Assembly (NCBI GenBank): GCA_002311855.1
Contig: DCAB01000012.1
Location: 462,063-526,062 of the forward strand
DNA from: Candidatus Dadabacteria bacterium UBA1144
Lineage (GTDB): Bacteria; Desulfobacterota_D; UBA1144
Direction: 5' to 3'
Length of the DNA stretch: 64,000 nucleotides
In this document: positions 3,883 to 56,855 of the stretch, one piece after another
Position numbering within the stretch: position 1 is the stretch's first letter
Layout: the number at the start of each line of letters is the position of its first letter
Program-made: the position numbers and the translations under genes
The notes under the pieces: model-generated
Told to the model about the DNA's origin: nothing
What the model saw: only the letters and a program-made list of their open reading frames with translations
The model's database searches: none

Positions 3883-4305
<423 letters not shown>

Positions 4306-17751: not shown

Positions 17752-18552
17752 ATGATAAAATACCTTGGGTCAGTTCCTTTCTTAAATTCTAAACCCCTTA
17801 CATATTTATTTGATAATAATTTTATTAGAAATTACAAAACCTATGAATATTACCCCTCGTCATTATTGGATCCTTTAATATCAGGAAAAGTTTTTTTATC
17901 ATTACTTTCCATTGCTGATCATTTATCTAATAAGGATGTTCTTTCTCTGACAGATTATTGTATAAGTTCTTATGGAAAAGTCGGTAGTGTAATTTTGGTA
18001 TCTAAATCAAAATTAAAAGATATAAAAAACGTAGTTCTAGATAGTAGATCTAAAAGCTCAAACATGCTTTTCAAGGTAATTCAATCCTCTTTTCTTAATA
18101 TCGATGTTGATTATGAAATTAGAGAGCCAAAATTAAATATGAGAATGGAGCCTGGTGTCGGATATGTCATTATAGGTGATCTTAGTTTAGAGATTATTTC
18201 GTTAGACCCAATAGGGATTAACACATATGACTTGGGAGAAATTTGGTTTAAGGAGACCGGATTCCCCTTTACATTTGGGACATACAATTATTTAAATCCT
18301 TCTCCTAAAAAAGAAGAACTAGATTTTCTCGATAACTCTTATATGGAGGGTTCTAAAAATATTAATTCGATAATTGATGATTTCTTGATTGCTAATCAAC
18401 ATAAAATAGAAAAAAAAATTGCCGAAGAATATCTAAATGAAAGAATCTTTTATAAAATTACAGATGATCATATCAAGGGCATCAATCTTTTTTTGAAACT
18501 CTCTTCGAAATTTGCAAATTGGAAAAAAAATAGTTTTAATAACAAAATCTAA
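17752..18552 (+). CDS. mqnA: Chorismate dehydratase MqnA-like (futalosine pathway)
   Basis: 266 aa. The N-terminus LGSVPFLNSKPL is typical of MqnA. Adjacent to an MqnD-family gene. Confidence 0.6.
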   Translation: MIKYLGSVPFLNSKPLTYLFDNNFIRNYKTYEYYPSSLLDPLISGKVFLSLLSIADHLSNKDVLSLTDYCISSYGKVGSVILVSKSKLKDIKNVVLDSRSKSSNMLFKVIQSSFLNIDVDYEIREPKLNMRMEPGVGYVIIGDLSLEIISLDPIGINTYDLGEIWFKETGFPFTFGTYNYLNPSPKKEELDFLDNSYMEGSKNINSIIDDFLIANQHKIEKKIAEEYLNERIFYKITDDHIKGINLFLKLSSKFANWKKNSFNNKI

Positions 18553-19389: not shown

Positions 19390-20614
19390 TCGTCTCCCCA
19401 TTAATCATTGATAGTTTTAAATCATTATTGTTTGAGTCAATTACGGACATAAAGGGGTTGTCATTTTTTATTCTAAAAGCTATTAAGTCGGCCTTTTTGT
19501 TTTTTTTTATTGTCCCTACCATATTCTCGATGCCGAGGGCTCTTGCTCCTCCTATCGTAGCTTTCTCCAGAACGATTTTCTCACAATTTTTCTTAGCAAA
19601 TTTCTTTGAGTGGAGATACAAAGACTTAATTTCATCTAAAAAATTTATTGAAAAATTGCTAGATAATCCATCCGTGCCTAATCCAATATTCTTGTATTTA
19701 AGGAAAAATTTTAAATTAGGTAACCTTTGATTTAAAAATAAATTACTTCGCGGGCATAGAACAACGCCATATTGCTCTCTCTCTAGTATTTTTAAGTCTG
19801 CTTTTATTAAATTATTCATATGCACTAGAAGTATTCTTTGTTTATTTTTATTAAGATTATTCAAGTAGGAAAGGGGAGAGTCACTTTTAATTTTTATTTT
19901 TGGTCTTTTTGGTAACATTGGAAAAATTATATCTTCCAGGCCACTCTTCTTTTTTTGAATTAATCTAATCTCATCTCTACTTTCAGAGAGGTGAATGCCG
20001 AGATTTATTTTTCTATTTTGAGCAATTTTGAATAGATTTTGCAATTTCTCAGTATCAAGTGTATAGATTGAGTGGGGGAACAGTCTTAAATTAAACATGC
20101 CGTTTTTATCTTTTCTGTCTAAATTAATCAATTTCCTAAAAAAACTTTTGTCGATATTCGGCATAGTTGAATTTACTACTTCAAAAAAATATACTGTCCT
20201 TATTTTACTTCTGATTATTTCTTGAAAATCTAGTCCATTATACGAACTTATCTGTCCAATGGTTGTAACGCCTGAATCAATTGATTCTTTTAGTGATTTC
20301 CTAACAGAATTAATTATCATTTCTTTCTTAGAAGTTTGTTTTTTTAAATCTATAATTTGAGCTAGCCAGGAAGAAAACGAATTAAAAGGAATTAATTTTC
20401 TTCTAATCCAATTTAATTCGAGATGGATATGAGCGTTAATAAACCCTGGCATTAATATGCAATCTTCCAAATTGATTATTTTATATTTATTTTTATTGAC
20501 TTCTGAATTGGGAAGAATATCTTCAATTTTGTCGTTATTGACTATGACCGAATACCCATACAAGGGTTGGCTGCCACAAAAAAGAATATATCTGGCCCTT
20601 AAAGCTTTTTGCAT
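19376..20614 (-). CDS. Amidohydrolase-superfamily deaminase; candidate aminodeoxyfutalosine deaminase
   Basis: 412 aa with the metal-binding HxH (GFINAHIHLE) and later HLSE and GTDG motifs of amidohydrolase deaminases. The specific function is inferred only from adjacency to the mqn genes. Confidence 0.6.
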   Translation of the reverse strand: MQKALRARYILFCGSQPLYGYSVIVNNDKIEDILPNSEVNKNKYKIINLEDCILMPGFINAHIHLELNWIRRKLIPFNSFSSWLAQIIDLKKQTSKKEMIINSVRKSLKESIDSGVTTIGQISSYNGLDFQEIIRSKIRTVYFFEVVNSTMPNIDKSFFRKLINLDRKDKNGMFNLRLFPHSIYTLDTEKLQNLFKIAQNRKINLGIHLSESRDEIRLIQKKKSGLEDIIFPMLPKRPKIKIKSDSPLSYLNNLNKNKQRILLVHMNNLIKADLKILEREQYGVVLCPRSNLFLNQRLPNLKFFLKYKNIGLGTDGLSSNFSINFLDEIKSLYLHSKKFAKKNCEKIVLEKATIGGARALGIENMVGTIKKNKKADLIAFRIKNDNPFMSVIDSNNNDLKLSMINGETIKLK

Positions 20615-43704: not shown

Positions 43705-44844
43705 ATGAAATATAGAAAAGAAATACTTGGAGAAATTAAGAGAGTTGTTATTAAAATTGGCTCAAAGGCACTTGCCAATAAAGAAAACAAAATTAGCTTG
43801 TCTAGAATAAAATACCTAGCTTCATCAGTCGACTATCTTAGGTCGAAAAATATTGAATGCCTAATAGTTTCATCTGGAGCGATTCTTGCTGGTAATGAGT
43901 TCTTCTCGCTAAATATAAAAAATTTAAATATTGTTAAAAAACAAGCACTAGCATCCTTAGGTCAGATTAAATTGATGAGCTACTATATAAAAGCGTTTCA
44001 ATCAAAAAAAATTGATGTATCCCAGCTATTATTAACAAATGATATTTTCGGAGACAGAAAACGATTCCTAAACACCAGAGCCACAATACTTGAACTTATC
44101 AAAATGAACATTACTCCAATTATAAATGAGAACGATACAGTATCAGTTGATGAAATAATGTTTGGAGATAACGATATACTTGCATCAAAAGTCGCATCTA
44201 TGATGGATGCAGATTGTTTAATACTTCTTACGGATATTGATGGATTATATAGTTCTAATCCAAAAAATAATAAAAAAGCTGAATTGATTCAAATTCTACA
44301 AGAAGATAAATTTGATTCACAAATCATTAATGATACATCTGCTGATATATCGTATGGAGGAATGAAATCCAAGATAGATGCGGCATTGGAAGTTTCTAAA
44401 TTTGGCATTCCAACGATTATAGCAAACGGTAAAAAGAAAGATGAGTTGTTAAAAATATTTAACTACGAAAATATTGGGACCGCAATAGTTCCTAATCCTG
44501 TCAAGATTAAAAATAGAAAAAAATGGATAGGCATAGGACCAAAATCTTCTGGAAAACTATTCCTTGACGATGGAGCATCGGATGCAATAACCAATAAAGG
44601 TAAAAGCTTACTACCTTCTGGTATTTTGAAAATTGAAGGGAAATTTTTTAAAGGTCAACAAGTAGTATGTTTCAATAACACTACCAATAAACCAATAGCG
44701 AAAGGCTTAATCTCTTATAGTGCAAAAGAAGTGGATTTAGTTAAAGGAAAGAAATCTACAGAAATAGAAAAAATATTGGGATATAAATACTCTGACGAAA
44801 TAATTAACAGAGATAATATGGTCATTTTACAATTTGCTATATAA
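43705..44844 (+). CDS. proB: Glutamate 5-kinase (with C-terminal PUA domain)
   Basis: 379 aa with VIKIGSKAL, IVSSGAI, NENDTVS..E..FGDND.LA, and the PUA region LPSGILKIEG.F..G. Confidence 0.9.
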   Translation: MKYRKEILGEIKRVVIKIGSKALANKENKISLSRIKYLASSVDYLRSKNIECLIVSSGAILAGNEFFSLNIKNLNIVKKQALASLGQIKLMSYYIKAFQSKKIDVSQLLLTNDIFGDRKRFLNTRATILELIKMNITPIINENDTVSVDEIMFGDNDILASKVASMMDADCLILLTDIDGLYSSNPKNNKKAELIQILQEDKFDSQIINDTSADISYGGMKSKIDAALEVSKFGIPTIIANGKKKDELLKIFNYENIGTAIVPNPVKIKNRKKWIGIGPKSSGKLFLDDGASDAITNKGKSLLPSGILKIEGKFFKGQQVVCFNNTTNKPIAKGLISYSAKEVDLVKGKKSTEIEKILGYKYSDEIINRDNMVILQFAI

Positions 44845-45865
44845 AATTAAAAGGATTTTCAGCGTCTACATCTCTGACTGGCTTATTTAAGAATTGTGTG
44901 TTTGACTCCTTTCTTTCGATTCTAATCTTCCCATTCTTGTTCTCGTATGCTACGAACTGAGATCCATATGTTTCTCTCGATATTGCATCCAAGATCATAG
45001 GGAAATTTTTTGCACCTATGAAGATTGAATGAATACATATTCCTAATTTTTTTGCTCTTTCTCTCTCTCGTTTCACTTCAGTATCACCCGACGTAGGAAT
45101 TCCATCGGTTATAAAAAGAATATGTTTATTTCTGAAGCCTCGGCCTTTAAAATCTGATATGGCATCTTTGAGTGCCTCTTCATAATTTGTATTTCCAGAG
45201 CACTCAGTCTTATTAGCTGACTTAAGAATTGTTTCATATTCTTTTGTGAAAAATTTTTCCTCTACTATAGTCTTAAATGATTTATGATTGAATTCTATAT
45301 ATCCTACCCTCATTTTTTTTGTTCTAGAGAGTTCTAGAACTGCTCTAACGACCGATGAAGACCATTCACTATATACGCCCATCATAGAGGTACTTATATC
45401 TCTCAGGATTGCTATTTCACCCCCCATCCTCTCTTTTTCTCTTTGATGGACTCTGGGTAGTTGGGGAGAAAGATTTTTTATCCAAATTGATGCATCCATT
45501 GGATCCACGTCTTCTATCTCATAAAATGAATTCATTCTTTTGTATCTCCTGGGAAGACCACCCGGATGTGTACCTTTCTTCGCTAGGCTTCTTTGTATAT
45601 TCCCCTCAAGGCATTTCATAACGACTTGAACATTTTGAGCGACTTCCGAATTATCTGAGACGCGCATTTTCGCTGCGTCAGTATCACCAGCTCTTTTAGA
45701 TTTAGTTGCGTAGATTTTTTCAGACAATGGGGTATTATCAATACCTCCTTCATCATCGTTTTTACTTTGGTTGTGTGGATCTGTTGGTACTTTTTCATCT
45801 GAATCCATTGGTTTTGAATTATCTTCACTAGTTAAATTACTCTGAAGCTCCTCTAATGCATCCAT
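44837..45865 (-). CDS. von Willebrand factor A (VWA) domain protein, partner of the upstream MoxR-like ATPase
   Basis: 342 aa from the first ATG. MIDAS residues are present: DISTS (DxSxS), then FITDGIPTSGD. The acidic low-complexity N-terminus continues upstream in the same frame with no start codon (see findings). Confidence 0.75.
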   Translation of the reverse strand: MDALEELQSNLTSEDNSKPMDSDEKVPTDPHNQSKNDDEGGIDNTPLSEKIYATKSKRAGDTDAAKMRVSDNSEVAQNVQVVMKCLEGNIQRSLAKKGTHPGGLPRRYKRMNSFYEIEDVDPMDASIWIKNLSPQLPRVHQREKERMGGEIAILRDISTSMMGVYSEWSSSVVRAVLELSRTKKMRVGYIEFNHKSFKTIVEEKFFTKEYETILKSANKTECSGNTNYEEALKDAISDFKGRGFRNKHILFITDGIPTSGDTEVKRERERAKKLGICIHSIFIGAKNFPMILDAISRETYGSQFVAYENKNGKIRIERKESNTQFLNKPVRDVDAENPFNFI

Positions 45866-45990
45866 AAAAATATTCTGAGCCTCATTGATTTGTTCTTCTG
45901 TTAGATCTGATTCTTTATCTTGATTAGAGCCAAGTTGTTTATTAGGTGAATCTTCTTCGTATTTTCTGCCTTCTCTTTTGTCTCTATTCT

Positions 45991-46935
45991 CTATTTCTTG
46001 GTCTTTTTTTTTTGGTTCTCTATAGATTCAAGTTTGTCTTCAGCAAGTTGCAGCATATCTTCAGGCACTCTAAAAGCTAACAAAAACTTTAGAGCTTTAA
46101 GGTCAGACAGATTGGCTTCGTCTCTTCCGTTTAAAACTGAATGAGCCTTTATGATTTTTATGGATTTAACCAGGAAAGTTCTGTCGGATATGACAGAATT
46201 TGATTCATTCAATTTCTGATCTTCTATCAGCCAGGTTACAAAACTTATAAGACCTTCTTGTACAGACGCCGGGACTATAACTTTTTTAAGCTTATCATAG
46301 CTTTCATCTAATGCCTTTTTTCCAACCTTTGTAACAAAATCATAGGATCCATTTTTTGTAGAATAAAGACTCACGATCTTCTTTGCATTGTCCCACTGTT
46401 TTCCATAAGATAAGCCACTTGCGTTGATTTGGATTACAAACCTATCAAGATTGGCTGGATCCAATGGCTCGTTGTAGTACTCGTCTGCAGTTGGATTACT
46501 TGTTGCAATGGCAGTTAGGAGAGGAATAGACTCCTGACCATATTTTCTTTCATTTAATATTCTTAGAAGAACGTTTAAAGACTCCCCAGGTGCTCTGGAA
46601 ATATCATCAAGCAATGCTATTTCTGAAGTTAGTATCCCTCCTTTGATAATATCTTGTCTAATTAGCTCGCCATTTTCTGTATCTTCTCTAGAAATTACAA
46701 GATCACCAACTAATTCTGATAGCCTTGTGTCTCTGTGCATTTGATAGAAAAAAAACTTCAATTCAGCAGATTTAGAGATTATCTCGGAAAGCATTGTTTT
46801 AGCTGTACCAGGAGGACCTTGAATGTATATGTGCTCTCTCGAGATTACTCCCAATAAAAGAGCTGTTTTGACGTCATCATGCCCTATGACCAGCTCGTCC
46901 ATTTCGTTTCTTAATACTTCAAAAGCATTAGACAT
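45991..46935 (-). CDS. MoxR/RavA-like AAA+ ATPase
   Basis: 314 aa with Walker A GPPGTAKT, a Walker B-like LLDDISRAP, and NVLLRILNER. Size and order resemble MoxR-family chaperone ATPases paired with VWA proteins. Confidence 0.85.
   Translation of the reverse strand: MSNAFEVLRNEMDELVIGHDDVKTALLLGVISREHIYIQGPPGTAKTMLSEIISKSAELKFFFYQMHRDTRLSELVGDLVISREDTENGELIRQDIIKGGILTSEIALLDDISRAPGESLNVLLRILNERKYGQESIPLLTAIATSNPTADEYYNEPLDPANLDRFVIQINASGLSYGKQWDNAKKIVSLYSTKNGSYDFVTKVGKKALDESYDKLKKVIVPASVQEGLISFVTWLIEDQKLNESNSVISDRTFLVKSIKIIKAHSVLNGRDEANLSDLKALKFLLAFRVPEDMLQLAEDKLESIENQKKKTKK
46003..46009 (-). other. Candidate -1 programmed ribosomal frameshift heptamer A_AAA_AAG (or homopolymer indel site)
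   Basis: The minus strand reads ...AAC CAA AAA AAA AAG ACC AAG AAA TAG in the AAA+ frame. The last seven bases of the A10G run form the dnaX-type X_XXY_YYZ motif in the correct phase. The -1 frame continues GAC CAA GAA ATA ... into the VWA ATG at 45865 without a stop. Confidence 0.3.
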
Positions 46936-47059: not shown

Positions 47060-47722
47060 GTGAACCTTGAAAAGAAAATAGGATACAAATTTAAGAAAAA
47101 AAACCTTCTCCTGGAGTCTATAACCCATAAATCCTATGGTAATGAGAATGGTAAGCCTGATAATGAAAGACTAGAATTTCTTGGAGATTCGATAATTGGT
47201 TTGATAGTTGCTAAATATCTATATACATTGTTTCCAGACCACGACGAAGGTGATTTATCAAAATTAAAGAATCAAATTGTTAGTTCAAAATCATTTTGTA
47301 AAATCGCGAAAAAATTAGATCTTGGTAGTTTTATGTTATTGGGTAGAGGAGAGTTGAAATCAGGAGGAAGAAAAAGGGAATCAAACCTTGCTGGATTATT
47401 TGAAGCAATAGTAGGAGCGGTATATCTTGATTCCGGTCCTAGGGCAACAGAAATTTTTTTGAATAAATTCCTTTTAAATCAAGATTTTTCAAAAATAATT
47501 GACGAAGATTATAAATCTATTTTACAAATTATATCTCAGAAACAATTTGGTTCTGTTCCCAAATACCAAATTGATAAAGAAGTTGGACGACCTCACGATA
47601 AAAAATTTTATGTCTCTGTTTTTATTAATGACATAAAACAGTCTAGCGCAATAGGTAAAAGTAAGAAAATAGCCCAAAATAATTGTGCGATGAAAACCTT
47701 GAAAAAACTCAAGAATCTTTAA
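47060..47722 (+). CDS. rnc: Ribonuclease III
   Basis: 220 aa with a GTG start. N-terminal IGYKFKKKNLLLESITHKSY, signature ERLEFLGDS, and a C-terminal dsRBD (GRPHDKKFYVSV...GKSKKIAQNNCA). Confidence 0.9.
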   Translation: MNLEKKIGYKFKKKNLLLESITHKSYGNENGKPDNERLEFLGDSIIGLIVAKYLYTLFPDHDEGDLSKLKNQIVSSKSFCKIAKKLDLGSFMLLGRGELKSGGRKRESNLAGLFEAIVGAVYLDSGPRATEIFLNKFLLNQDFSKIIDEDYKSILQIISQKQFGSVPKYQIDKEVGRPHDKKFYVSVFINDIKQSSAIGKSKKIAQNNCAMKTLKKLKNL

Positions 47723-49145
47723 TTATACTAGAGTCAATTTTTAAGGCAGCAATTTTTTTTCTTAGAGAATTTTCGTCGATACCTAGTTTTCTACAAGAAA
47801 TCCGCAAATCCCCTTTGTTTTTAATTAATACTGATTCTATTAGAGGTTTATCAATTCGATTAATAATAAAATCATATAAATTAGTTTCTGGGAGATCTGA
47901 ATCATCAAATAAATTCTCAATTAATTTTACATAATTAACTTTATTGCTTATTAGTCCAGATTTTTTAAATGTTTTTGGCAGGTGTTCTCTTATAGAATCT
48001 GATGTTAGTTCAGAGTCGGGTACCATAAGAACAAGTTTTTTGATTGAATTTTCTAGCTCTCTAACGTTTCCTGGCCAATCATATTTTAGAAAAATATTTA
48101 GAAAATCATCATCGATGGACTTAGGTGACTCGTCTTTATTTGCATATTTAATAAGAAAGAAGTCAATCAAAAGAGGGATATCGGATTTCCTTTCTCTGAG
48201 TGTTGGAAGCTCGATATTAATAGAATTTAATCTAAAAAATAAATCTTCACGAAAATTTTTGTTTTCTACCTCTTTCTCAAGATTCTTGTTTGTAGAAGTT
48301 ATAATTCTACAATTGAAATTTACTGGTTTTTGTCCACCCAATCTATAAAATTTCCTTTCTTCTAAAACTCTTAGGAGTTTACTTTGGAGGTCGTAAGACA
48401 TATCTCCAATTTCATCTAAAAGGATTGTCCCACCGTTGGCTTCTTCAAATCTGCCGATTTTCTTAGCTGTGGCACCTGTAAATGCTCCTTTCTCGTAACC
48501 AAACAGTTCGCTTTCCAGCAGCTCGTTAGGTATAGCGGTTATATTAATTTGGACGTAATTCCCCTTAGAATTTTTACTGCTTAAGTGTACTGCTTTAGCA
48601 ATTAATTCTTTTCCAGTTCCGGATTCGCCAGTAATTAAAACAGTATGGTCCGAATTAGAAATACGTCCAACATCTTTAAAATTTTTTTTTATCTGTGGAG
48701 ATTTTCCGATTATGTCAAAATTGTCGTCTTTCTTTTCTTTTAAATCTTCTTCTAGTTTAATAATTTTATTCGTCTTAATTGAGTTCTTTATAGCTCTGTC
48801 GATTGTTAATGAAAAATCTGAATCAAAATCAAAAGGTTTGGTTATATAGTCATAAGCCCCCCTCTTGATAGCTTCAATGATATTGGCCATTGTATCTTGA
48901 GCTGTGATTATAATAATTGAACAGTTGTTACTTATTTCTTTTATTTTCTCTAAGTACTTTAAGGAATTTCCGTCTGGCAAATTAATATCGAGCAATATTA
49001 ATTCAAATTGAGTCTTTTTTAGAATGGAATAAGTCTCAGATAGTTTGCCCGCAGTATCTGTCTGATATCCTATTCCGTTTAAATGGATACTTAGTATTTT
49101 TCTTATGCTTTCTTCGTCGTCGACAATTAAAATTGATTCATTCAT
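47709..49145 (-). CDS. ntrC: Sigma-54-dependent response regulator, NtrC type
   Basis: 478 aa. REC domain (ILIVDDE...LLDINLPDG), AAA+ sigma-54 activator domain ([31 protein letters not shown]) and a C-terminal Fis-type HTH. Confidence 0.85.
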
Positions 49146-55781: not shown

Positions 55782-56855
55782 TTAACTTATTTTTTTGCAA
55801 TCTCCATTGGTGACTAGAAATAGAACATGGTCCCTCATCTTTAGGTCCAATAATTGTTTATTGCTTGCAGTTATGAAACATTGAGTATTAATTTTGGCTA
55901 AAAAATTATAGAAAAACTTCAATCTTTTTTCGTCAAATTCACTTCCAATTTCATCGACAAGTACTAGAGGGAATCTATCTTCCAATTTCTTTAACATTAA
56001 TATTTCTGATATTTTAATCGCTAGTGCTATTGTTTTTTTTTCTCCTTCAGAACCAAAATTAAAAACATCAATTTTATCTGCCAGGAAGGTAATTTTGTCT
56101 TTATGGGAACCAATTGAACTATGTCCTAATATCTTATCATGTCCTCTATTTTGTTTTAATTTTTTTTTCAATTTGGTAATTTCCAGTGAGTCGCTAACAA
56201 AATCAAGATTAATGGAAATATTTTTATCTAATTTTTTGATAATCTGATTTGTAAGATTTACAATTCTTGATATCCACAGCCTTCGATTTAGTGAAACTTT
56301 GTTCGATAATCTTATTAGTCTATCATCGATAAAATCTAGAACTTCGTCGTTCCTAGTTGTTCTTAAAATTTCATTTCTTCTTTGAATCTCTCTAGAATAA
56401 TTATTTATTAATACTCTATATTCATTACTAAAATTTGAAACAATGGAATCTAGGCAATCGCGCCTAGGCTTGGAAGATCTTCCCAAATTATAACTTAAGT
56501 CTTTATCGAACATGACTGTAGATACAATCTTCTTAATTTCTTTTCTACTGTTAACTTGTTTATCATTAAGCTCCAACTTCTTTTTGTTATCGATAATTGA
56601 GAATTTTATATAATTTGTCCTAAATTCGTCAGAAAACTCTCCACTTATTTCGAGAAATTTTTGATTAAATTTTATTAAATCATCAAATTTTGAATTCCTA
56701 AAGGTTCTTCCATTAATTAGTGTCCATATAGCTTCAAGAAGATTTGTTTTTCCTTGGCCATTATTGCCTAAAAAGATGTTGATCCTGGAATTAAGGTTGA
56801 ATCTTGTTTCTGAATAATTCCTAAAATTCTTAAGAAAAATAGAGTCTAATTTCAT
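55782..56855 (-). CDS. recF: DNA replication and repair protein RecF
   Basis: 357 aa with FRNY, Walker A GNNGQGKTNLLEA, signature-like GSEGEKKT and Walker B LVLVDEIGSEFD. Confidence 0.9.
   Translation of the reverse strand: MKLDSIFLKNFRNYSETRFNLNSRINIFLGNNGQGKTNLLEAIWTLINGRTFRNSKFDDLIKFNQKFLEISGEFSDEFRTNYIKFSIIDNKKKLELNDKQVNSRKEIKKIVSTVMFDKDLSYNLGRSSKPRRDCLDSIVSNFSNEYRVLINNYSREIQRRNEILRTTRNDEVLDFIDDRLIRLSNKVSLNRRLWISRIVNLTNQIIKKLDKNISINLDFVSDSLEITKLKKKLKQNRGHDKILGHSSIGSHKDKITFLADKIDVFNFGSEGEKKTIALAIKISEILMLKKLEDRFPLVLVDEIGSEFDEKRLKFFYNFLAKINTQCFITASNKQLLDLKMRDHVLFLVTNGDCKKIS

Follow-up and report, generated by a model that had tools for sequence, protein, structure and literature searches.

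A conserved poly(A) tract as a candidate programmed slippage site in a MoxR-VWA gene of Candidatus Dadabacteria

Introduction

When two adjacent open reading frames (ORFs) lie out of frame with one another, are they two genes or the halves of a single one, and in the latter case how is the frame bridged? This question is posed by a locus of the marine, low-GC (guanine plus cytosine) Candidatus Dadabacteria bacterium UBA1144, located in a 64-kb stretch of contig DCAB01000012.1 that was analysed as a whole and is referred to hereafter as the window. An ORF on the minus strand, coding for a MoxR-type AAA+ ATPase, terminates shortly after a run of ten adenines (A10) and is followed, in the -1 frame relative to it, by an ORF coding for a protein with a von Willebrand factor A (VWA) domain. 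The A run is one base short of frame: standard decoding would stop three codons past the run and produce the AAA+ protein alone (314 amino acids, aa), and a one-base slip on A10 would give rise to a full AAA+-linker-VWA protein of 699 aa.

An initial annotation, prepared from the DNA letters, had recognized this junction and put forward four readings: programmed -1 frameshifting of the dnaX type with two products, an error of one nucleotide (nt) in the A run, phase variation, and a non-canonical start for the VWA gene. The comparative analysis described here points to programmed recoding of either kind, transcriptional or ribosomal, as a highly probable explanation. In the mechanism proposed, the RNA polymerase would be the principal slipping machine, adding an extra A in a fraction of the transcripts (programmed transcriptional realignment), with a possible contribution from -1 ribosomal slippage on the heptamer A_AAA_AAG.

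The junction and its two reading frames

The 3' end of the AAA+ ORF reads GAG AAC CAA AAA AAA AAG ACC AAG AAA TAG on the minus strand. Re-reading of the sequence bears out the observations from which the initial annotation had started: the end of the ORF, the T10 run on the plus strand and the in-phase A_AAA_AAG are as described; the -1 frame is free of stops from the TGA at 46028-46030 to the VWA ORF; and the ORF listing contains no ATG, GTG or TTG in the -1 frame upstream of 45865, where the first ATG is found. The -1 frame reads ...KKKDQEIENRDKREGRKYEEDSPNKQLGSNQDKESDLTEEQINEAQNIF-M.... The only stretch in which both frames are open (Table 1) lies between the -1-frame TGA and the TAG at 45991-45993 that stops the zero frame. 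With its 699 aa (~79 kDa), the conceptual -1 product contains ...ENQKKKDQEIENR... at the junction, with ...LESIENQKKKDQEIENR... as junction peptide, and the zero-frame product has the C-terminus ...QKKKTKK.

The T10 is the single homopolymer of at least 10 within the window, whose GC content is ~33%. Stops account for ~7.5% of random codons at this composition, so that an open stretch of 46-54 codons has a p of ~0.015-0.03 by the authors' own arithmetic. The initial annotation had argued that a non-coding gap in such AT-rich DNA would be full of stops. Its conclusion that the gap is coding has held (dN/dS, the ratio of nonsynonymous to synonymous substitution rates, is 0.18), but the open frame alone is suggestive and modestly unusual, not decisive; it is the comparative evidence that places the junction far beyond chance.

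Two halves of one ancestral gene

A search with the conceptual fusion matches more than 100 single-ORF proteins of ~700 aa, with identity up to 61% and a coverage of 97-100% of its length. The best 34 matches are single proteins of 689-714 aa that share 57-61% identity over 94-100% of the query, carry both sets of domains and originate from Candidatus Dadabacteria and related metagenome-assembled genomes (MAGs). More distant single-ORF relatives, at ~47% identity, are present in Entotheonella/Tectomicrobia. The alignment of the fusion with its single-ORF homologues is gapless at the junction, where the KKK motif coded by the A run is nearly invariant, and the linker of the window (..NEAQNIFMDALEELQSNL) aligns with that of the fused homologues (..SEARKTFFQALKELKENL). 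ATG 45865, taken as the VWA start, aligns inside a helix conserved in these proteins; this codon is therefore an internal Met and not a conserved start. Judged from these alignments, the AAA+ and VWA ORFs are the halves of one ancestral gene rather than two genes.

Conservation of the split across species

A search with the AAA+ half indicates that the split is not peculiar to the window. Among the best 120 clusters (61-98% identity), nearly all are stand-alone ORFs of 301-327 aa that encounter a stop within ~15 codons, usually 2-8, after KKK(K). Their tails vary, ending in TKK, TGTGGTS, IQMTS, SRMTS or PKKSK before the stop, and some of these ORFs are located on Mb-size contigs. Eighty species-representative loci were then fetched from GTDB genomes and analysed by tblastn and frame walking; a further locus, L057, is incomplete and was left unclassified. 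Apart from the window, 47 species-representative genomes have the gene interrupted at this KKK motif, and in 46 of these 47 the VWA half lies in the -1 frame. The two frames are jointly open for just 22-124 nt in the split relatives and an A10 or A11 run is always inside this interval. With the window included, 33 split genes carry A10 and 15 carry A11, all runs being at least 10 long; an in-phase A_AAA_AAR heptamer is found in 47 of the 47 other split loci, which range in GC content from 28 to 55%. The comparison of orthologous loci suggested in the initial annotation has thus returned a conserved heptamer in a conserved phase, fused homologues in other species and a linker under purifying selection.

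Three phasings of the run are observed. The window's clade displays CAA/GAA AAA AAA AAG ACC (A10), a second clade AAA AAA AAA AAG ACA (A11) and a third GAT AAA AAA AAA AGC/ACC/ATC (A10). In the third the -1 frame opens at the TAA that is formed by GA-TAA at the start of the run, and the shift is therefore bound to take place inside the run or immediately past it, ahead of the zero-frame stop that follows four codons on. A neighbour-joining tree shows split and fused clades interleaved within Dadabacteria.

A coding linker and no separate start for the VWA half

The stretch between the two annotated ORFs evolves as protein-coding DNA. Across 17 species of the window's clade, 45 linker codons accumulate 1292, 825 and 2781 differences at positions 1, 2 and 3, respectively, of the -1 frame, the comparison from which the linker dN/dS of 0.18 derives. 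Measured in three split clades, dN/dS ranges from 0.03 to 0.05 over the AAA+ half and from 0.04 to 0.06 over the linker plus VWA half (0.058 for 44837..45865), and synonymous divergence is saturated (dS ~2). The low values for both halves therefore rule out a decaying pseudogene. The proposal that the gap peptide is a linker and not non-coding DNA is upheld by its alignment to fused linkers, by its dN/dS and by a structural model in which it is mostly disordered.

An independent VWA start was considered and rejected, as the position of the first start is not conserved and no conserved Shine-Dalgarno (SD) sequence for the VWA half is found among the split species. Depending on the species, the first ATG, GTG or TTG in the VWA frame occurs 5-128 codons past the run. 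Close relatives have Leu or Thr at the place of Met 45865 of the window, and the sole GAGG upstream of its ATG is 14 nt away. The reading that a non-canonical ATA, ATC or ATT codon serves as start falls on the same 5-128 codons, together with the clade in which the -1 frame opens only inside the run.

These data also bear on gene fission or decay, whereby a fixed frameshift would have left the AAA+ protein alone, with the VWA half either dead or furnished with a start of its own. MoxR and VWA partners are usually separate genes and gene callers annotate two ORFs here, as fission would predict. Yet the VWA half is as constrained as the AAA+ half, the start-less linker is itself under selection, up to 128 start-less codons follow the run with no conserved start or SD, and A10 or A11 is kept in genomes of 50-55% GC, where a fissioned gene would have no need of it. 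Fission is hence regarded as most improbable.

The A10 run is genuine

Homopolymers are error-prone, and one objection to a slippage site is that the run truly is an A11 and the gene a single ORF. Two observations lend it some colour. The first concerns two sister pairs of species-representative genomes, each 97% identical in this protein and one A apart at a junction near position 3920 of each locus: L053 (split, A10) and L017 (fused, A11), and L062 (split, A11) and L009 (fused, A12). L009 has a coverage of 5 and the contig names of L053 suggest a long-read assembly; the one-A differences reflect either very recent toggling or a homopolymer error in one member. The second is the occurrence of A9 versions in assemblies of one project. 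A pattern scan of JGI metagenomes for the junction of the window's clade, with the length of the run left variable, retrieved 8 contigs, 6 with A10 and 2 with A9. The A9 junctions are confined to this single project, being found in two MDTE01 contigs and in the TMED58 MAG (L031:3923-3931; L091:2392-2420; L093:10802-10830). Three different species are involved, all of which show A10 when assembled elsewhere, and the A9 versions produce an apparent +1 configuration; they are probably a systematic homopolymer artefact of one pipeline.

Against an error stands the recurrence of the same A10 in independent ENA, JGI and Logan assemblies. The exact 314-aa protein is found on 13 contigs from these sources, and the junction DNA, A10 included, is 100% identical to the window in 5 representative loci, which makes 6 independent contigs with the window. 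The 90% cluster of the short protein comprises 15 variants, one of them named Candidatus Dadabacteria: 14 of the 15 are 314 aa long, the other being a 249-aa fragment, and all 15 end in ...QKKKTKK. Moreover, the split is common to whole clades of 15-18 species, a single-cell genome included. Neither an in-frame A11 allele nor a fused protein of the window's clade was seen among 5.8 billion protein clusters, the assemblies and the contigs of the clade, an absence that is uninformative about minority transcripts. The error reading is rejected and its residual probability is negligible.

Phase variation by slipped-strand mispairing, with populations switching between A10 (off) and A11 (on), makes use of the same hypermutable tract and could draw on the alternation of fused and split states on the tree and on rare proteins of the other phase. 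Three such database proteins (P0188, P0192 and P0232) end in the other wrong-frame tail, for instance ..KKKTPSGLKKQYRTTADV before the stop, and have a run one base off the norm of their lineage; they represent either natural run-length polymorphism or sequencing errors. A switching locus sits poorly, however, with the lack of an A11 allele of the clade in the assemblies and protein clusters, with an A10 in every contig that carries the window's protein and in 6 of 8 clade contigs, with a split fixed across whole clades whose dS is ~2, and with an off-phase that is nearly always -1 and not mixed. In addition, the product is presumably cytoplasmic and not a surface antigen. Phase variation, another of the readings advanced initially, is very unlikely.

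Maintenance of the run at the nucleotide level

The A run is also retained where no slip is required. Twenty-one fused relatives of the same subfamily, from loci with up to 64% GC, have a run at exactly the same place: A9 in 6, A10 in 12, A11 in 2 and A12 in 1. Their motif is always AAA AAA AAA, never AAG, and mostly has a flanking A, whereas AAG prevails elsewhere in the same genes (for example 6 AAA vs 47 AAG, or 2 vs 25). The codons beside the run change in amino acid but keep the A: CAA, GAA, CGA or TCA before it and AGC, ACC, ATC or ACT after it. The fetched loci, 592 kb in all, hold 95 runs of at least 9, and 70 of these are at the junction site (own count from the per-locus listing). 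As an outgroup, 9 distant fused genes (39-42% identity, labelled SAR324/Lambdaproteobacteria) have acidic residues instead of KKK and no run longer than A4 at that place; KKK and the poly(A) tract are therefore a trait of one subfamily and not a requirement of the fold. These sequence patterns indicate that the A run is under selection at the nucleotide level and is longer than the protein sequence requires.

In the fused genes a one-base slip reaches a stop after 1-15 codons in the -1 frame or 0-25 codons in the +1 frame, and slippage there would generate an AAA+-only product. A side observation concerns the stop of the split genes. The zero-frame TAG is embedded in a conserved -1-frame dipeptide, Ile/Val/Leu-Glu, which in relatives is always written NTA GAR (ATA, GTA or CTA followed by GAG or GAA), and the same TAG is the +1-frame stop, 8 codons past the run, in most fused Dadabacteria relatives. 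The stop that ends the short product may itself be conserved.

Which machine slips

The window has a homopolymeric A/T run of the length typical of transcriptional realignment (about 9 or more) at an ORF junction, an A10, and equally the in-phase X_XXY_YYZ arrangement that typifies ribosomal sites, with respect to the zero frame. One count of split loci puts A10 or A11 in 47 of 48, the window included. DNA by itself does not tell the two machines apart, because any run of at least 9 holds an in-phase A_AAA_AAR and both routes yield the junction peptide QKKKD. The transcriptional route is favoured because the run is long (A10-A11) and neither a stimulatory structure nor an SD-like element accompanies it. 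It is also favoured by the contrast between split genes, none of which has fewer than 10, and fused genes, which often reach A9 only.

Downstream of the run, 80 nt of the window fold at -4.9 kcal/mol (z = -0.18), a fold of the alignment of 12 species contains 0 pairs, and minimum free energies set against shuffles in 48 loci have a mean z of -0.6 (+1.29 for the window), with no conserved structure; the impression by eye that there is no hairpin is therefore matched by computation. Upstream, the sequences vary by clade (..ATAGAGAACC, ..CAAAGCC, ..CTCACCTCC, ..GTTCAGGAT), and no conserved SD-like (GGAGG-like) element is apparent by eye in the aligned sequences, on which no formal scan was run. 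An Rfam scan of 45700-46300 at E <= 1 returned only a spurious match to a long non-coding RNA and no frameshift element. The 64-kb window has no tRNA-Lys gene, its tRNAs being tRNA-Phe, tRNA-Gly and tRNA-Ala only, and is thus uninformative about ribosomal shiftiness. One clade (L068, L072, L073, L075, L080, L082, L083 and L085), of the GAT AAA AAA AAA AGC type, does have a strong hairpin, CCGGAUCAGAUGCCUGAUUCGG, ~25-47 nt past A10, with z down to -3.3. This hairpin is absent from the window's clade and too distant for a classical -1 stimulator; it could affect pausing of the polymerase or of the ribosome.

What is known of other systems is consistent with a polymerase slipping on such a tract. 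In Thermus dnaX, RNA polymerase slippage on A9 results in ~50% altered product, and in endosymbionts it corrects 12-50% of transcripts, mostly by insertion of an extra A (PMC5009743). Insertion of a single A would supply just the base that the -1 configuration lacks. Antonov et al. have attributed two-ORF dnaX genes that carry A10 to transcriptional slippage (PMC3711429). By the criterion of Baranov et al. 2005 for functional transcriptional slippage (PMC1088944) the site qualifies amply, 47-fold, and the 46 other species genomes concerned have protein identities to the window as low as 57%.

A purely ribosomal -1 frameshift of the E. coli dnaX type, in which all mRNAs have A10 and Lys-tRNAs on A_AAA_AAG slip back, is possible but doubtful. 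The in-phase A_AAA_AAG is the best -1 shifter known in E. coli (PMC4066793) and is conserved in both the window's clade and the A11 clade; of 47 other species, 46 have -1 as their off-frame; and chlD, a gene of the same architecture, shifts on A_AAA_AAR with efficiencies of 10-63% in reporters (PMC3711429). However, no hairpin or pseudoknot is found at the right spacing and no conserved upstream SD-like element by eye, and heptamers without stimulators remain well under 1% in E. coli, at most ~10x a 0.055% background (PMC4066793). Furthermore, the run is held at 10-11 with flanking A's across amino-acid changes, beyond the need of a heptamer, and one clade has A_AAA_AAA followed by AGC instead of AAG. 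Of the reading first proposed for this locus, the two products by a -1 shift at the A run are thus sustained by the split, the -1 relation and the A10 or A11 in 46 other species. Its dnaX-type ribosomal label is not: downstream structure, conserved SD-like element by eye and Rfam element are all lacking, and a run of A10-A11 is the signature of RNA polymerase slippage.

Several points weigh against RNA polymerase as the main slipping agent, or against the two-product interpretation in general. An A_AAA_AAR is contained in any run of at least 9, and the window, like two of the three clades, has the optimal A_AAA_AAG. Within the window, A9 occurs five times on the sense strand of ordinary long ORFs (18410-18418, 19500-19508, 48682-48690, 56033-56041 and 56160-56168), two of them inside the single ORF 55782..56855; A9 is thus tolerated in ORFs and, by the reasoning of Baranov et al., the polymerase may slip little on such runs. 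It may be less slippery at 9, and this might explain a site held at 10. The efficiencies cited refer to E. coli, Thermus and endosymbionts, none of them Dadabacteria. Many of the compared genomes are MAGs, some of them long-read assemblies with error-prone homopolymers, and the species are phylogenetically non-independent, so that the split lineages that are independent number about 4-5. Assembled proteins include no fused (A11) form from the window's clade. Lastly, the two products and the route of the slip are predictions from DNA. Weighing these points, the assignment of RNA polymerase slippage as the main route is offered as an evenly balanced judgement.

Identity of the domains and predicted structure

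The AAA+ half scores above the Pfam cut-offs for bpMoxR (76 bits vs a cut-off of 27), AAA_5, AAA_3 and AAA_lid_8. The NCBIfam RavA match is weak, 61.6 bits being far under the 681-bit cut-off. A PDB profile search with this half retrieved 2r44 at 1e-24 and RavA at 2e-12, and 2r44 and RavA were also the top Foldseek matches of its model. On these profile and fold matches, the ATPase domain is best described as a member of the MoxR family of AAA+ ATPases. Membership of the ChlD/BchD group was tried and rejected: PF01078 (Mg_chelatase) scores 19.4 bits, under its cut-off of 20.3, and covers residues 16-53 only, and TIGR02442 scores 18.5 against a cut-off of 779. Chelatase chains were absent from the PDB profile matches and from the best 50 of Foldseek.

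An AlphaFold2 model of the fusion consists of the AAA+ part (residues 1-310), a linker that is mostly disordered with one conserved helix, and the VWA domain (505-675). Confidence in this model is moderate (predicted local distance difference test, pLDDT, 64.8; predicted template modelling score, pTM, 0.47) and it was used only for domain boundaries and for the AAA+ fold match. The slip site is at the end of the last lid helix in the model, which would place it at a natural domain boundary.

Organization of the locus

The coordinates of the features are collected in Table 1. An AGGA is present upstream of the AAA+ start ATG 46935. At its 3' end the VWA frame shares 8 nt (44837-44844) with the end of a convergent ORF, 43705..44844 on the plus strand, which has AA_kinase and PUA domains and resembles glutamate 5-kinase. 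Upstream, the RNase III gene 47060..47722 is divergent from the putative recoded gene, which, given this divergent neighbour and the convergent ORF downstream, therefore appears to be a single-gene transcription unit. Around the locus, the lineage has genes for RNase III, a sigma-54 two-component pair and GST as well as proB. One split clade (L061, L071, L074, L076, L077, L079 and L084) has a second conserved A9 run, intergenic and ~70-80 nt upstream of the AAA+ start (for example L074:2922-2930), which may be a promoter or leader feature.

Table 1. Features of the MoxR-VWA locus in the window, with positions counted from its first letter.
Feature	Position	Strand	Remarks
AAA+ zero-frame ORF, MoxR-type AAA+ ATPase (predicted short product)	45991..46935	-	314 aa; ends ...ENQKKKTKK before the stop
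AAA+ core	~46420..46908	-	Pfam domains
AAA+ lid	~46078..46215	-	Pfam domains
Candidate slippery A10 tract (T10 on + strand)	46004..46013	-	Codes for the conserved KKK motif
In-phase heptamer A_AAA_AAG	46003..46009	-	
Shift window, sole stretch with zero and -1 frames both open	45994..46027	-	34 nt
Linker, in -1 frame (DQEIENR...AQNIF)	45866..46003	-	46 codons; earlier read as intergenic gap
Remaining -1 frame: second linker part, VWA domain and C-terminal tail	44837..45865	-	
VWA domain	~44951..45418	-	Pfam VWA, VWA_2, VWA_3
Whole putative recoded gene (AAA+-linker-VWA)	44837..46935	-	Long product of 699 aa, predicted on one-base slip at A10

Two products and their relation to known systems

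Why should an AAA+ protein be made both with and without a VWA domain? MoxR hexamers bind one VWA partner, as in NorQ6:NorD1, and analogous low-resolution densities have been reported for CbbQ-CbbO (PMC9976466). By analogy, we infer that one gene supplies such a complex of a hexamer and a VWA adaptor: AAA+-only subunits would make up most of the hexameric ring, a minority would carry the VWA adaptor arm, and the two products would co-assemble in proportions set by the efficiency of the slip. RavA-ViaA, NorQ-NorD and CbbQ-CbbO involve the same two domain families and the same expected unit, an AAA+ hexamer with about one VWA adaptor. Their components are, however, encoded by separate genes with starts of their own, whereas here the VWA domain would be covalently attached to a copy of the AAA+ protein.

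The literature contains no description that we could find of recoding for MoxR-VWA genes or in Dadabacteria. The initial annotation, which knew of no recoded MoxR-VWA pair, was correct to this extent; recoding of an AAA+-linker-VWA gene as such does have a precedent in chlD. Frameshifted chlD genes are reportedly the subject of work by Antonov in 2020 (Mol Biol Evol). The closest known case is the frameshifted chlD of the 'magnesium chelatase' GeneTack cluster (Antonov et al. 2013; PMC9227772), which shares with the present locus the AAA+-linker-VWA architecture, the annotation as two adjacent ORFs of ~1 kb, the -1 shift on A_AAA_AAR and the existence of single-ORF fusions in other species. 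From this one gene the small (AAA+) and medium (AAA+-VWA) subunits of a ring complex are derived (PMC9227772). Yet chlD belongs to another sequence family, and the MoxR/RavA-like AAA+ half described here failed the chelatase tests of both sequence and fold. Besides, chlD sites usually have downstream structures, none of which was found here, and consist of a bare heptamer instead of an A10-A11 run.

A second parallel is provided by dnaX, where slippage on a Lys-coding A run likewise determines the proportions of two AAA+ products, tau and gamma, and where both configurations occur across lineages, the long form being either in frame or dependent on a slip. The gene and its function are unrelated, and the hairpin and SD-like stimulator known from E. 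coli dnaX were not found at the present site; the best match is not the E. coli type but the transcriptional one, exemplified by the A9 of Thermus thermophilus and the two-ORF A10 genes of Chlorobi type. Insertion sequence (IS) transposases, Shigella mxiE/spa and the poly(A) rescue of Buchnera and Blochmannia also use runs of at least 9 A/T to fuse two ORFs in the mRNA and have a conserved ORF organization. In contrast to the IS and rescue cases, the gene considered here is chromosomal, non-mobile and apparently a housekeeping one, conserved among uncultured lineages that bear the labels Dadabacteria, Entotheonella and Poribacteria. Nor does it represent a degenerative rescue of the Buchnera/Blochmannia type, because the fused relatives keep the run too.

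Implications

On the comparative evidence, the A run appears to be a real, conserved and programmed slippage site, and the gene that carries it a new family within an already known type of recoding. Conserved programmed slippage is rare in non-mobile chromosomal genes, with dnaX, chlD and mxiE as examples, and the new family has unusually clear comparative support in the form of a run kept at 64% GC, both configurations and an outgroup without the run. In dozens of genomes, and in many more metagenome contigs, the locus is annotated as a 'MoxR family ATPase' and a hypothetical protein whose start is arbitrary; it should be annotated as one recoded gene, and the internal ATG taken as the VWA start is wrong.

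A broader view, which is considered rather probable, is that the poly(A) tract is an ancient, maintained device in the MoxR-VWA fusion family of lineages labelled Dadabacteria, Entotheonella (Tectomicrobia) and Poribacteria, absent from the SAR324/Lambdaproteobacteria outgroup. Its role would be to fix the proportion of AAA+-only and AAA+-VWA subunits in a single ring complex, and lineages would repeatedly toggle between the in-frame and the slippage configuration by single-A changes, thereby re-tuning this ratio. If true, this would be the first recoded MoxR system and a second, independent solution of the chlD kind; together with dnaX, it would represent a non-mobile chromosomal gene having both configurations. 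The ratio of AAA+ hexamer to VWA adaptor, ~6:1, is set elsewhere by separate genes and here would be hard-wired in a homopolymer. The recoded locus would then offer a direct handle on the stoichiometry and assembly of MoxR-VWA machines, and suggests that the AAA+/AAA+-VWA two-product logic of the chelatases may have arisen more than once.

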